From: Escherichia phage MiataMamis
Sequence record: PP925834.1
Reading direction: 5' to 3' (one strand)
Length of the DNA: 64,000 bases
The translations under genes and the position numbers were made by a program. The notes under the pieces are model-generated. The model ran no database searches and had not been told where the DNA came from. It saw only the letters and a program-made list of their open reading frames with translations. How positions within the stretch are numbered: the stretch's first letter is position 1; the number at the start of each line of letters is the position of its first letter. Positions 2,353-12,285 of the stretch are shown piece by piece.

Positions 2353-2385
2353 GGTGGTTGTCTCCCCCGTCACCGGTGCCTGCCG
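2353..2385. repeat. 33-bp inverted-repeat element, copy A (reverse complement of 12253-12285)
   Basis: GGTGGTTGTCTCCCCCGTCACCGGTGCCTGCCG; intergenic; internal hairpin CCGGTG-N14-CACCGG. Confidence 0.65.
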
Positions 2386-2399
2386 TGAAACAAGTATAA

Positions 2400-2428
2400 C
2401 AAAAAACAGGACCATTGCAAGCCCTGTT
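2400..2428 (-). terminator. intrinsic terminator-like hairpin plus T6
   Basis: Hairpin ACAGGGC...GTCCTGT followed by TTTTTT on the minus strand, downstream of gene 2445..2636. Confidence 0.45.
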
Positions 2429-2444
2429 TTGTAGTTTATAAATC

Positions 2445-2636
2445 TTATATTTTTTCGCCTATGTAGTCAGGTCGGTTTTTCTCTGTCATGCGCTTTAGCA
2501 ATTCTTGCATGTTACTTATGGCTTGTAGTGTATCCTCTTCCAGGCTTGAATCTACATAATCAGGATCGTCTATCACCTTTCTATGATTATGATAACGCAG
2601 TACTGCTAATACCTTTCTGACTTGTTCAGTATTCAT
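2445..2636 (-). CDS. hypothetical protein (63 aa)
   Basis: ORF-track ORF followed by hairpin plus T-run at 2400-2428. Confidence 0.5.
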   Translation of the reverse strand: MNTEQVRKVLAVLRYHNHRKVIDDPDYVDSSLEEDTLQAISNMQELLKRMTEKNRPDYIGEKI

Positions 2637-2652
2637 TTTACATCGCCCTTAC

Positions 2653-2943
2653 TTATTGTTGGCGGTTTACATAAGCTTTACCGTTTACCGTCATCGGCAG
2701 ATCTTCCAGGTCTGGATCTTCCTTAAGGTCGCGTGCAAGCTCACCGCACCGGATACCCTCGAATCCGTAGTACTCTGTTGTACCGTCATTAAAAGTTTTA
2801 GCGGCAAGGCATAAGCGATAAGTAACCCCGATTTGATTGACGGCATGGATATCCGTTAGATCAACCTCTTTTGCCAGCTCTTTAGCCATTACAGGTGCGT
2901 TAAGTCCAACAACCAGGGCAACTACTGCGATCATCTTTTTCAT
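2653..2943 (-). CDS. small secreted protein with N-terminal signal peptide (96 aa)
   Basis: N-terminus MKKMIAVVALVVGLNAPVMA followed by KE looks like a cleavable signal peptide. Confidence 0.6.
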   Translation of the reverse strand: MKKMIAVVALVVGLNAPVMAKELAKEVDLTDIHAVNQIGVTYRLCLAAKTFNDGTTEYYGFEGIRCGELARDLKEDPDLEDLPMTVNGKAYVNRQQ

Positions 2944-3034
2944 TGTGTCTAGCCTCTTTCCGCTACGTTTAAGGCGGCGGTAACCGCCTGTTTATGCTTT
3001 GTTGGTTAATTTTCAGGTATCGCTATAAATTAAA

Positions 3035-3250
3035 CTATGCTGTACGCTCAACTATAACAACGGTTTGGGGGATCTCACCTTCCACCACTATCAAGGCTTT
3101 TTTCTGCGTGATGGATATCTTTACCCGTTGCAGTGTGGCGGTGAAGTCTTTCATTTCGTCACGTGGTGTTTTAGTGCAATGCCAGATCTCAGGCTTACCT
3201 ATTTGCAAGCCGCGTAAAAATTCTGTTTTGCCTGTTTTGTTAGTGATCAT
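3035..3250 (-). CDS. hypothetical protein (71 aa)
   Basis: ORF-track ORF; SD AGGTG upstream of ATG. Confidence 0.55.
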   Translation of the reverse strand: MITNKTGKTEFLRGLQIGKPEIWHCTKTPRDEMKDFTATLQRVKISITQKKALIVVEGEIPQTVVIVERTA

Positions 3251-3407
3251 TTGTTACACCTTAACCGATACCGTTGGAAGATAGGATCATGTTAGCCAGA
3301 GTCGCAACCACTCCAACCGATAACACCAGGCCCACTATTACAACCGTGAAAATTTTCTCTAACATGATTCTACCCTCATTGATGGGCGTTACTGCCCCGC
3401 TTATGGT

Positions 3408-3644
3408 TTATTGATTGATGTCATAATGAAAGTTATTTTCTTCAGTAGCTTTTAAAATAAAAGCCGTGATCGCTTTCGTGTCTACTTGTTCGAACGTATC
3501 AGAATAGCACCAATAATAATCATCCCCTACTTTCGGCGGGTAAACCTGGACAAGGAGATCGCCACCTGGTTGATCTATAATCTCAACATGCAAGCCGGAT
3601 GATTCAGCGGTTTTAACGGCGGTTAATACTGTTGCAATACTCAT
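3408..3644 (-). CDS. hypothetical protein (78 aa)
   Basis: ORF-track ORF; SD AGGAAAAG upstream of ATG. Confidence 0.55.
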   Translation of the reverse strand: MSIATVLTAVKTAESSGLHVEIIDQPGGDLLVQVYPPKVGDDYYWCYSDTFEQVDTKAITAFILKATEENNFHYDINQ

Positions 3645-3724
3645 AATCTTTTCCTTTCCGATGTGGGGGCGTTGCCTTATTGCCCCGCCCTACGAAATAC
3701 ATTCTATCAGATAACAGATTATCG

Positions 3725-3871
3725 TTAAGATTTATTTTTTACTTCCCAAACGGAAAATTCACTACCTATCGGGAGCATTCTTTTAATCTTGTTTGCTGCC
3801 GCTACCAGATCCACGGCTTGCACTGTAATAATATAACCAATTGTCGAGGCTGTTGCGTTGAAAGTTTTCAT
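3725..3871 (-). CDS. hypothetical small protein (48 aa; ORF-track ORF 3725..3910 trimmed to internal ATG)
   Basis: Internal ATG at 3871 has SD GAGGAT; the upstream ATG at 3910 has none. Confidence 0.45.
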   Translation of the reverse strand: MKTFNATASTIGYIITVQAVDLVAAANKIKRMLPIGSEFSVWEVKNKS

Positions 3872-3942
3872 TATATTATCCTCTAATCCAGGCCGCCCTA
3901 CGTGATACATCTTACACTATTTGAAAATGTTGTCAAACTATT

Positions 3943-4122
3943 TTAACGATAATCATCATATGCTTTATTTACCTGGCGAATATAACATTCAAAAGCCAGA
4001 TCAATAGATTCATATTCACGGATATATTCACCATAGGAAACCACGTACATCTTTATAGCTTCCTCATATGCTAGGAGAATAGAATCTAACCCTACGATCT
4101 CAGTCTTTGCAATAATAGCCAT
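3943..4122 (-). CDS. hypothetical small protein (59 aa, below ORF-track cutoff)
   Basis: Hand translation MAIIAKTEIVGLDSILLAYEEAIKMYVV...; SD AGAGGAT upstream of ATG at 4122; fills an otherwise empty 290-bp gap. Confidence 0.45.
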   Translation of the reverse strand: MAIIAKTEIVGLDSILLAYEEAIKMYVVSYGEYIREYESIDLAFECYIRQVNKAYDDYR

Positions 4123-10634: not shown

Positions 10635-11030
10635 TTAGTAAGTTTTCAGTACTTTCCCGTCCAGTCTGTCAAGCTGGATCTCGATAGCTGCAGAAAACCT
10701 ATTATAAACCACATCGCCCATGGAGTCCAGCCAATCTATGACGTTATACACCTGCTCTTTATTCTTGCAAGTCCGGATCCGTTTCATTACGTAAGACGGA
10801 TCAATATTAGCGCTCTCGTTGTTGTGGTCATGCGCCTGGCCTGCTGCATTAGTTATAGATTTTACAACCACCTGAAAGGGCTTTAAGGTGCCTTTTGCGT
10901 TCATCTCACGCGCTTTTGCGGCGCGGTTGTTATATGTTACACAACGGCGGCAAATGTTGACTAAATGCATATCAATAATTTTTTCATCATTTGCCAGCTC
11001 ATTCATGATGCGACGAATATTTTTATTCAT
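10635..11030 (-). CDS. hypothetical protein (131 aa)
   Basis: ORF-track ORF; SD AGAGAGGAAA upstream. Confidence 0.6.
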   Translation of the reverse strand: MNKNIRRIMNELANDEKIIDMHLVNICRRCVTYNNRAAKAREMNAKGTLKPFQVVVKSITNAAGQAHDHNNESANIDPSYVMKRIRTCKNKEQVYNVIDWLDSMGDVVYNRFSAAIEIQLDRLDGKVLKTY

Positions 11031-11120
11031 AATGGTTTCCTCTCTTTCTTGGTGTGGCGGCTGAGTATCAACCGCCTTTGATGCTTAGTTTACTCGAAAT
11101 CTGCAACCTGTCAATGATTT

Positions 11121-11519
11121 TTATTCGTGGGCGCATGTTACAATGTGCTTTTTATAACCCAGGTGCACCGCCAAAGCAGATAAAAATTCTTCTTCATTGA
11201 TCCAGCCGTTGGCAGTGATACCCATTGCACCTAGTGCGCTTTCAAGGGCCGCATTAGCCTTATCATAACCATACCCGCCAGCCTTGCCGCCAGCATAACC
11301 ATAATTATTGTTCTTGCTGTCGTGCATCCAGAAAACACAGTAGTGAGTGTTACCACTAGCGGCGGCGTAATACCGGATCTCTGCTACTTCGTGCAAATTA
11401 TTATCATCGTCCAGGCCTACCAGGTTATAAGCCTTATAGAATCCACGATCACGGCGGCAGTTCTTGACATCAGAAAAAGAAAAGTCTGCATTATCAAAAT
11501 TAAAGGTAGTGGTTTTCAT
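11121..11519 (-). CDS. hypothetical protein (132 aa)
   Basis: ORF-track ORF; SD AAGAGGAT upstream. Confidence 0.6.
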   Translation of the reverse strand: MKTTTFNFDNADFSFSDVKNCRRDRGFYKAYNLVGLDDDNNLHEVAEIRYYAAASGNTHYCVFWMHDSKNNNYGYAGGKAGGYGYDKANAALESALGAMGITANGWINEEEFLSALAVHLGYKKHIVTCAHE

Positions 11520-11551
11520 GATTTTATCCTCTTAGTGTCTTTTGTGCTTTT

Positions 11552-11580
11552 AGTGTATTTGGTGTCGGACTATATGTCAA
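11552..11580 (-). promoter_or_regulatory. sigma70-type promoter TTGACA-17-TACACT
   Basis: Minus-strand -35 at 11575-11580; upstream of gene 11121..11519. Confidence 0.4.
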
Positions 11581-11583
11581 TAC

Positions 11584-11781
11584 TTATTTTTTATTAAACC
11601 AGTGGTTGATCTGACCTTTTGTCAGGGCGCAACGATTAAGCTGTTGCAGGGTATAGCTATGACCGCGACGAAATTTATAAAGGCCTTGCCCGTTGTTGAT
11701 GGTTACGTCTACCTGGCAAACCATTTGATCGGTGACCACCTGGCGAGCGTTGCGACGTGCTTTGATTCCGTATACGTTCAT
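11584..11781 (-). CDS. hypothetical protein (65 aa; ORF-track ORF 11584..11859 trimmed)
   Basis: Internal ATG at 11781 with SD AAGAGGAAAA. Confidence 0.5.
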   Translation of the reverse strand: MNVYGIKARRNARQVVTDQMVCQVDVTINNGQGLYKFRRGHSYTLQQLNRCALTKGQINHWFNKK

Positions 11782-11831
11782 AATGTTTTCCTCTTTGCTA
11801 GTTAGTGCGGCGTTGTTCACCTTGTAGGGAA

Positions 11832-11859
11832 AGAATACCAGGATTAACCAGGTTGTCAA
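11832..11859 (-). promoter_or_regulatory. sigma70-type promoter TTGACA-16-TATTCT
   Basis: Minus-strand -35 at 11854-11859; upstream of gene 11584..11781. Confidence 0.4.
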
Positions 11860-11862
11860 TAA

Positions 11863-12033
11863 CTATTTCAAATTATTTTTAGGGTAGAATTCACCAGCGG
11901 CGGCCCCTGCAGCCTCAACCATCATTTTTTCATAGTTCAACCAGTTGACCAGGGCATCACGCGCCGCTTTCTCACGTCTTGCATCGATATCTTTACTGTT
12001 CACTACGATATCTTTTTTATCTTTACCTTTCAT
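11863..12033 (-). CDS. hypothetical basic protein (56 aa; ORF-track ORF 11863..12240 trimmed)
   Basis: ATG at 12033 with SD GGGGAGGAAAA; upstream part of the ORF-track ORF is low-complexity and overlaps a plus-strand promoter. Confidence 0.45.
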   Translation of the reverse strand: MKGKDKKDIVVNSKDIDARREKAARDALVNWLNYEKMMVEAAGAAAGEFYPKNNLK

Positions 12034-12207
12034 TTTATTTTCCTCCCCTTGTTGGGTATCTCTTCTTCCTGATTCTTTTATACTACTTCCCAGGGCCTGG
12101 CGCAACCATTTTATAACTTTCCTCCCTGGTCCGGTCGGACATACCAGCCTGGCCCCGCCAGGCTGCAGCGGTTGGCGCACCTGGTTAGAAAATTTTTTGA
12201 AAAAGTG

Positions 12208-12236
12208 TTGACAGCGGCCCCGCCAGGTGGCATAAT
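12208..12236 (+). promoter_or_regulatory. plus-strand sigma70-type promoter TTGACA-17-CATAAT reading into the non-coding region
   Basis: -35 at 12208-12213, -10 at 12231-12236; no plus-strand ORF downstream; followed by GC-rich hairpins at 12253-12285 and 12395-12430. Confidence 0.5.
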
Positions 12237-12252
12237 GCACTCATCGAAAGGA

Positions 12253-12285
12253 CGGCAGGCACCGGTGACGGGGGAGACAACCACC
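12253..12285. repeat. 33-bp inverted-repeat element, copy B
   Basis: CGGCAGGCACCGGTGACGGGGGAGACAACCACC; just downstream of the plus-strand promoter; related partial copy GGGAGACAAACACCGGG at 12410-12426. Confidence 0.65.

Follow-up and report, generated by a model that had tools for sequence, protein, structure and literature searches.

The 64,000 nucleotides of Escherichia phage MiataMamis analyzed here (sequence record PP925834.1; the whole stretch is called the window below) belong to a Vequintavirus (rV5-like) coliphage that is about 88-93% identical to HdK5, FFH2, rV5 and others. The window carries a 33 bp element, CGGCAGGCACCGGTGACGGGGGAGACAACCACC, exactly twice as an inverted pair about 10 kb apart, at 2353-2385 on the minus strand and 12253-12285 on the plus strand. 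The original prediction offered this pair as a possible protein-binding site, RNA processing element or recombination target whose use would invert the early block between the copies. The 33-mer appears instead to be the core of a promoter-proximal leader element of about 45 nt that is present in three paralogous copies, and comparison of genome sequences indicates that the promoter-leader cassettes containing it are conserved over two subfamilies, Vequintavirinae and Stephanstirmvirinae. With moderate confidence, the element is taken to act as the first 40-45 nt (the 5′ leader) of early transcripts that begin at predicted start sites. The exact inverted pair is a private by-product of exchange between these paralogous promoter-leader cassettes and not a designed inverted repeat.

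The three copies (c1, c2 and c3) are as follows.

2341-2386, minus strand: copy 1 (c1), leader element, ACGGCAGGC...GAGACAACCACC...GCCTGCCTGT; 2353-2386 is the same as copy 2

12243-12298, plus strand: copy 2 (c2), leader element; 12243-12285 is a 43-nt invariant run

12388-12430, plus strand: copy 3 (c3), leader element, GCCGGGGCAACAGGGGCCGG-GAGACAAACACC-GGGCCTGCCCG, diverged

The observation from which this analysis started is correct and lies far beyond chance. Shuffled sequences contained no match to the 33-mer (0 of 100 shuffles), the exact identity between c1 and c2 extends to 34 nt (beginning ACGG; 2353-2386 on the minus strand and 12252-12285 on the plus strand), and their similarity reaches 53 nt at 85% (2334-2386 and 12252-12304). 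The third copy, originally noticed as a partial one, is also real and proves to be a full element, with its core GAGACAAACACC at 12408-12419. The core that is invariant in all three copies is GAGACAA-N-CACC, and the order of parts in the cassette is promoter, G-rich arm, invariant GAGACAA-N-CACC and YTGCCYG arm. A profile hidden Markov model built from 30 family members finds exactly c1, c2 and c3 in the 64-kb window (E <= 1e-8; the next match has E = 2.1), and a 137-kb IMG/VR contig of a close relative has three matches to the strict motif. IMG/VR supplied few extra relatives, and a scan of metagenomes gave more diversity, mostly chance matches that were filtered out.

A sigma-70 promoter lies upstream of all three copies in the same orientation as the element, which begins 6-16 nt downstream of the -10 hexamer; because of this placement just after a promoter, each copy is predicted to be the 5′ leader of an early transcript. 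The promoters and the associated terminator are these.

2403-2430, minus strand: intrinsic terminator, hairpin plus T-run, that ends the upstream minus-strand genes (terminator scan, 11 pairs)

2393-2420, minus strand: c1 promoter, TTGCAA-16-TATACT with an extended -10 TG (promoter scan; kept in relatives)

2290-2318, minus strand: the next promoter (rV5 "P168"), TTGACA-17-TAACAT, serving the downstream minus-strand gene (scan; rV5 record annotation)

12187-12236, plus strand: P1, the c2 promoter, an A/T-rich UP-like tract and TTGACA-17-CATAAT with TG (consensus scan)

12352-12382, plus strand: P2, the c3 promoter, TTGCTT-19-TATAAT; an alternative -10, TACTAT at 12374-12379, gives a 16-nt spacer (direct reading)

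Among the promoter-like sites listed in 1-20000, P1 is the sole plus-strand site at 11/12 and the sole one on that strand with an exact TTGACA, and the remaining sites listed there at 11-12/12 are all on the minus strand. Its -35 and spacer are unchanged in 14 relatives, and it matches the Certrevirus early-promoter consensus AAAA-N3-TGTTGAC (PMC7344957). P2 was read by eye from the sequence and is not listed by the consensus scan. The 12-mer GGCCCCGCCAGG occurs twice near P1, at 12153-12164 (inside a hairpin upstream of the promoter) and at 12216-12227 (in its spacer), and in PVP-SE1 the spacer of the equivalent promoter contains CCTGGCGGGG, oriented the other way. The -35 hexamer of the c1 promoter sits inside the loop of the 2403-2430 terminator hairpin; in YP-6 this promoter is replaced in the same place by a non-homologous one, TTGACT-17-TATTCT. 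The same arrangement is seen in a four-copy minus-strand repeat family (5668-5731, 9625-9688, 9954-10017 and 10574-10637), in which a terminator-like stem and the next promoter overlap, since TTGACA lies in the loop of the hairpin GATGGCC...GGCCATC.

The protein genes that surround the two sites all lie on the minus strand, as do nearly all genes annotated there in relatives (the few plus-strand open reading frames [ORFs] of FFH2 overlap minus-strand genes), and c2 consequently reads against its neighbors. The statement that both copies of the pair read the same way relative to local transcription is right with respect to their own promoters, but c2 opposes the neighboring genes. The c1 promoter leads into minus-strand early genes, and the promoters of c2 and c3 lead into no gene. 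The terminator scan calls none of the three copies an intrinsic terminator, and the run that follows c3 is GUUAUUU only in Vequintavirus and CUAUUCU in other genera.

Within the genus, 105 GenBank phage records contain the c2 34-mer, each at a single site, and in 104 of them the identity is 100%. When 14 Vequintavirus sequences are compared over 12140-12560, the longest invariant run is the 43 nt from 12243 to 12285, which starts 7 nt past the -10 hexamer of the c2 promoter, where the start site is predicted, and ends at the last base of the core (c2 alone was examined in this way); the further invariant runs are the two promoters, c3 and the palindrome after c3. Copies c1 and c3 are polymorphic, with a run of 4-11 G, with A, C or T at the N of the core, and with a GGGCCTGCC/GGGGGTGCC dimorphism. 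The c1 of ten relatives is ACGGCAGGCACCTGGCGAC-G(n)-GAGACAATCACCGGG, that is, CACCTGGCGAC...CAAT (variants occur in YP-6 and two IMG contigs); the differences from c2 are an extra T, a C/T change, the length of the G-run and CAAT versus CAAC. The c1 of the window has the c2 state at every one of these differing positions and matches the c2 allele of HdK5 over 37 nt; its flanks are orthologous to those of the relatives' c1 (95% identical to HdK5).

A second copy of the 34-mer was found in 0 of the 105 GenBank relatives (megablast with a 28-base exact word). The search of related genomes that had been proposed as a check thus finds the element in relatives but the exact pair in none of the 105, and among the genomes compared the pair is private to this phage. 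Since the c1 of the window has c2 states where ten relatives have c1 states, these observations are best explained by gene conversion of c1 by c2, in which c2 is the invariant master and c1 was overwritten in this lineage by a patch of no more than about 37 nt. The two-base dimorphism is common to c1 and c3 in different genomes, and this sharing suggests that there has been further exchange between those two copies. Nothing points to an assembly error at c1, although one is possible.

The cassettes also extend beyond the genus. The c3 cassette was found in Seunavirus (PVP-SE1, GAP31 and LNA4), Certrevirus (CR9), Mydovirus and a Serratia phage, as well as in Erwinia and Pectobacterium phages and in Phapecoctavirus/FBKp34; the parts held in common are the UP-like tract, -35, -10, core, YTGCCYG and a palindrome exactly 24 nt past the core. 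P2 and its UP-like tract are kept in Seunavirus, Certrevirus, Mydovirus, the Serratia phage and Phapecoctavirus. The c1 cassette (a terminator with the -35 in its loop, the -10 and the element) is present in Seunavirus and Phapecoctavirus, and the terminator stem of phAPEC8 has a compensatory C-G to T-A change. Divergent c1 and c3 cassettes 8-11 kb apart, as in the window, are present in five genomes from four lineages (GEC_vB_MG, RUS_R7, CR9, FBKp34 and F4M1E). Two control early promoter-plus-leader regions gave matches in Vequintavirus records only, and because these ordinary leaders stay within the genus the conservation of the c1 and c3 cassettes is unusual.

The three copies resemble the leaders of other early transcripts. 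Seven of 19 ordinary early promoters have, by inspection, a compact GC-rich hairpin at about +5 to +30 after CAA(A)G, and these leaders continue with a CA-rich spacer, a Shine-Dalgarno sequence and ATG. Eight of the 19 ordinary leaders fold with z < -1, and one of them is CAACGGGGAGACATCCCC, close to GACGGGGGAGACAACCACC. The real plus-strand gene gp201 (DUF7170) of PVP-SE1 is preceded by a GAGACAACAAC leader, and in the retrieved locus of Serratia phage Kashira GGGACAAACAAC, at the locus edge, lies just 5′ of a plus-strand ORF. Because ordinary leaders show the same hairpin layout and related leaders precede genes, the three copies look like enlarged, specialized members of the phage's usual 5′ leader design, two of them without a gene. 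PVP-SE1 and Kashira also share a promoter followed by about 90 nt of GC-rich, near-identical sequence (GAGGAAACGCCACCCCACGGCGAAAAGGCGGGGCTAACG...GGTAGTTCGACC; positions 335-430 of the PVP-SE1 locus, L063, and 335-415 of the Kashira locus, L062); this stretch has no Rfam match, is absent from the window and may be another non-coding RNA.

The leader reading goes a step beyond what was observed (the anatomy and conservation of the cassettes, gene conversion, no inversion), and the grounds for it are the promoters, the fixed orientation, the invariant run at the predicted start and the kinship with ordinary leaders. The element would act as RNA, as a 5′-terminal module of early transcripts and an enlarged relative of the small GC-rich 5′ hairpins on many ordinary early mRNAs. 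A conserved factor, of the host or of the phage, would recognize the invariant, mostly unpaired core of the element. Copy c1 would head a transcript that runs on into the minus-strand early genes, and the rightward transcripts headed by c2 and c3 would contain no gene and would enter non-coding DNA that carries the Fur-box-like palindromes and the iterons. The leader RNA may serve as a protective or recognized 5′ module, a role that is favored because it is the phage's general leader design.

Several results weigh against this reading, most of them from tests of RNA structure. Every instance can fold with the core in an apical loop, and some lineages have complementary arm variants (GGTGG/CCACC and TCTGG/CCAGA), but shuffled flanks enclose the core about as well and the shuffle controls are not clearly beaten in folding. 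RNAalifold predicts no pairs on a MAFFT alignment of 30 instances, and in three swap tests native arms pair no better than between-lineage chimeras (P = 0.29 for the whole hairpin, 0.51 for the inner stem and 0.20 for the outer stem). The most conserved copy, c2, is without an outer stem and folds weakly (z = -1.2). What is conserved is mainly primary sequence, and selection for pairing is unsupported by these formal tests. The start sites are themselves predictions, no factor that reads the core was found and no Rfam family matches the element, and the strong conservation of primary sequence together with the fixed spacing of the palindrome would fit recognition at the DNA level equally well. 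The CCGGTG-N14-CACCGG hairpin that had been described in each copy is exact at c2 (12262-12287), but the 3′ arm at c1 is CACCAG and its stem is therefore bulged. The suggestion that the element is an RNA element or protein-binding site is compatible with all of this, with a promoter-proximal leader as the best-supported anatomy, but the hairpin is without covariation support.

The region from about 11860 to 13060, in which c2 and c3 lie, is judged to be non-coding because its ORFs are broken, the frames are inconsistent and there is no codon-position bias. Both members of the pair were said to be intergenic, and this is borne out, the ORFs annotated there in some relatives being broken in the window. 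The most prominent of these candidates, rV5 ORF198 (HdK5_00029), is a 92-amino acid minus-strand ORF that runs across c2 and c3 in some records; it contains stops in an IMG contig (L069), is split into two short ORFs in the window and differs among nine relatives nearly always by non-synonymous changes, and it was rejected as a gene on account of the stops, the broken frame and the non-synonymous variation. A plus-strand ORF of 43 amino acids over c3 (12339-12470) was rejected because it shows only non-synonymous changes relative to HdK5 (worked by hand). Across other genera the core lies in three different frames or has no ATG (also worked by hand), and leaderless or mini-ORF readings of the element were rejected for frame inconsistency, stops and non-synonymous variation. 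A strong ribosome-binding site with an ATG at 12109 opens an ORF of only eight codons.

On the left side of P1, the DNA of the window from 11934 to 12117 is unrelated to the corresponding DNA in relatives, and a mosaic junction lies at 12117 beside the promoter. At the other end of the region, 12760-13060 is its most variable stretch among relatives and is probably non-coding; 12760-12920 is highly variable, and ORFs at 12794-12955 (minus strand) and 12850-12996 (plus strand) are without codon-position bias. The published rV5 map has a box labeled "non-coding" (PMC3606486) that may correspond to 11860-13060.

Searches for known elements in and around this region gave little. Rfam covariance models at a permissive threshold (E <= 1) found nothing relevant in window positions 1-15000 or in eight orthologous loci. 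Klebsiella phage K45PH128C2 has tRNA-Ile and tRNA-Met annotated over its c3 orthologue (1420-1573 of locus L059) and tRNA-Lys at 878-953. With ARAGORN, neither the window nor the K45PH128C2 locus yields a tRNA, so the tRNA-Met over the c3 orthologue was treated as a mis-annotation; the tRNA annotation of this locus is likely shifted or spurious. Similarity to a plasmid origin or to host DNA was rejected, as blastn gave no plasmid match except a phage filed as a plasmid. The 137.6-kb "E. coli plasmid" CP057073.1 has the c2/c3 region at 93% and is probably an rV5-like phage genome; similarly, some 16-18 "Campylobacter phage" records (MG0656xx) are 90-95% identical over the searched regions and are probably rV5-like coliphages from a Campylobacter phage project. 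Sigma-54, DnaA-box, ArgR, PurR and CsrA readings of the core were dropped by eye as poor matches, and a Pfam and PHROGs search of the adjacent proteins for a regulator returned only families of unknown function.

Three further features lie to the right of c2 and c3.

12308-12326, minus strand: Fur-box-like site 1, GATAATGATAACCGTTCTC, 16/19 to consensus

12438-12462, no strand assigned: Fur-box-like palindrome 2, GAGAATGATTATCATTC, 24 nt past the core in all c3 orthologues

12559-12759, plus strand: three iteron-like repeats of about 65-74 nt (repeat family D2), the last two ending in ...GATCGAGTAC and the first in ...ATCGATTTCGTC

The two best matches in the 64 kb to the E. coli Fur consensus GATAATGATAATCATTATC are at 12308-12326 and 12444-12462 (the latter 15/19). 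The two Fur-box-like sites lie about 25 nt past c2 and c3, and palindrome 2 is invariant in 14 relatives. At no more than three mismatches there is one Fur-box match against 0.05 expected. The orthologous regions of CR9 and UP17 contain arrays of hexamer-phased Fur-box matches. Control of phage early transcription by iron through Fur is a possibility on these matches. The iteron-like repeats are downstream of the plus-strand promoters, contain GATC and show stronger conservation than the sequence on their right; PVP-SE1 and Serratia phage Kashira have equivalent triple repeats. PVP-SE1 gene 202 and GAP31_043A are annotated across such repeats, which are candidates for an origin, a pac site or a regulatory array.

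It is unlikely that the cassettes are parts of a replication origin, in which short transcripts from P1 and P2 (rightward) and from the c1 promoter (leftward) would form G-rich RNA-DNA hybrids that prime or activate replication next to the iterons, as R-loop primers do at ColE1 and at mitochondrial CSBII. Such a role would suit the lack of a gene downstream of c2 and c3, the AT-rich DNA with three conserved, GATC-containing repeats that follows them, the G-rich transcribed strand with its run varying from 4 to 11 G, and the outward-facing placement of c1 against c2 and c3, 8-11 kb apart, in the window and four other lineages; the phage family moreover has genes for a Pol A polymerase and for a T7-gp4-like primase-helicase (PMC3606486). 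However, promoters that face AT-rich DNA with iterons are found at c2 and c3 only, c1 being inside a gene-dense unit and without iterons, and the skew analysis in the rV5 paper shifts only where the direction of transcription changes and not at these sites. In addition, an R-loop has no need of 43 invariant bases, no origin mapping was found in the literature, and, although there is a resemblance to the ColE1 origin (GGCAAACAAACCACCGC), the blastn comparison with plasmids found only the phage filed as a plasmid. A site that acts as DNA is an unlikely explanation as well; here host Fur and a partner, or a phage regulator, would control the adjacent promoters by binding GAGACAA-N-CACC and the palindrome at 24 bp distance as one composite operator. 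That primary sequence is conserved rather than pairing, that the 24-nt spacing is constant in every c3 orthologue and that the two best Fur-consensus matches of the 64 kb follow c2 and c3 would all be expected of an operator, but a non-palindromic core, a Vequintavirus c1 without a palindrome behind it, an unvarying orientation relative to the promoter and a c2 invariant run that starts at the predicted start site instead of being centered on a block the size of a binding site would not. A more inclusive picture, which is distinctly doubtful, would make the cassettes the start points of a hitherto unrecognized control hub of Vequintavirinae and Stephanstirmvirinae, with two outward-facing sets of promoters for host RNA polymerase, 8-11 kb apart, and short non-coding leader RNAs that carry the invariant GAGACAA-N-CACC and, under the control of host Fur at the neighboring boxes, prime or license an iteron origin or reprogram RNA polymerase; if it were true, early phage development would be tied to the iron status of the host.

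Processive antitermination is very unlikely; in this model host RNA polymerase starting at these promoters would be modified by the leader RNA, either put-like or nut-like and joined by a bound factor, and would then read through early intrinsic terminators. The copies are placed just past early promoters on divergent units like nutL and nutR of lambda and putL and putR of HK022, the early region is rich in intrinsic terminators (31 terminator-like sites in 20 kb versus 17.8 expected) and conservation of the core spans hosts with a common RNA polymerase; on the other hand, no boxA-like sequence was seen by eye in the leaders (no formal boxA search was made), c2 and c3 have no genes downstream to express, and a conserved two-stem structure is unsupported. 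It is highly improbable that the copies are vestiges, remnants of early-gene 5′ untranslated regions that have lost their ORFs and are kept by promoters that are still useful. This would account for their resemblance to ordinary early leaders and for the genuine plus-strand gene (gp201, DUF7170) that follows a related GAGACAACAAC or GGGACAAACAAC leader in Seunavirus and, it appears, in the Serratia phage, but identity along 43 nt in 14 genomes, and along 34 nt in 104 of 105 records, would not be kept by a remnant, nor would a remnant cross genera while ordinary leaders do not. Finally, inversion of the 10-kb early block, the use first posed for the pair, almost certainly does not take place and can be set aside. 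An inverted repeat (34 nt exact, 53 nt at 85%) is present at both ends of the block and sequence has been exchanged between the copies, but seven relatives that have both sites are collinear with window positions 1-14500, the orientations of the flanks are consistent in all records common to both flank searches, and the exact pair is missing from the 105 GenBank relatives, each with the 34-mer once. Neither a recombinase domain nor any other significant Pfam match was found in the ten largest ORFs between 1084 and 11519 (the scan left out smaller ones), and the words integrase, recombinase and invertase are not in the text of the rV5 paper (PMC3606486). The term "recombination target" is apt for homologous gene conversion between the copies but not for inversion.

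The rV5-like phages are widely isolated and are candidates for biocontrol and therapy, and their early region is almost wholly annotated as "hypothetical". About 1 kb of it that is annotated as genes in several records is, on the present reading, actually non-coding, and within this same 1 kb lie the cassettes, the Fur-box-like sites and the iterons, the best conserved of the non-coding sequences in the part of the early region studied. A literature search on the motifs, on Vequintavirinae transcriptomes and on origin mapping found nothing relevant; the cassettes are undescribed in the literature searched, and together with the non-coding hub they are a more interesting result than the inverted pair. 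Should the leaders prove to be functional RNAs or origin primers, they would offer a handle on the control of early transcription or on the start of replication, and they would be sites to leave intact when these phages are engineered.

Among known systems, the Hin, Gin and Cin invertible segments are likewise flanked by inverted repeats of about 30 bp; here, however, the segment is 10 kb long with about 30 genes, its exact repeat is private to one genome, and neither a recombinase domain (in the ten largest ORFs) nor an orientation variant in relatives was found. Phage origins that are primed from promoters include the primary origin of T7 at phi1.1A/B and, in T4, oriE (iterons and an early-promoter RNA) and oriF. 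The tandem early promoters that face about 1 kb of AT-rich, iteron-bearing non-coding DNA are like these, but c1 is without iterons and the published rV5 skew is flat at these sites. The lambda nut and HK022 put sites are also short repeats in inverted orientation just past early promoters, and in those phages they are known to act in the nascent RNA. The present copies differ from them in that no boxA was seen by eye, the two-stem architecture of put is absent and c2 and c3 are without downstream genes; no matching N-like protein is known. Stem-loops that stabilize a 5′ end, such as that of the ompA 5′ untranslated region, share with the element, and with several ordinary leaders of this phage, a GC-rich hairpin a few bases from the 5′ end. 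A stabilizer of that type needs the stem alone, whereas here the loop and core are invariant, two copies are gene-less and covariation is not demonstrable.

Another parallel is with the PeSL cassettes of T4-type phages, which Arbiol and colleagues are said to have described in 2010 as repeats of an early promoter and stem-loop that mediate modular shuffling. In both systems a sigma-70 early promoter and a stem-loop make up a short, repeated cassette that lies between small early genes of unknown function, and in both there is homologous exchange between copies, as in the probable conversion of c1 by c2 and perhaps the mosaic junction at 12117 by P1. Unlike in the PeSLs, conservation here falls on a part beyond the promoter that would be transcribed, this part has an invariant non-palindromic core, and there are only three copies, which are not scattered in hyperplastic regions and instead occupy syntenic, divergent positions across two subfamilies.

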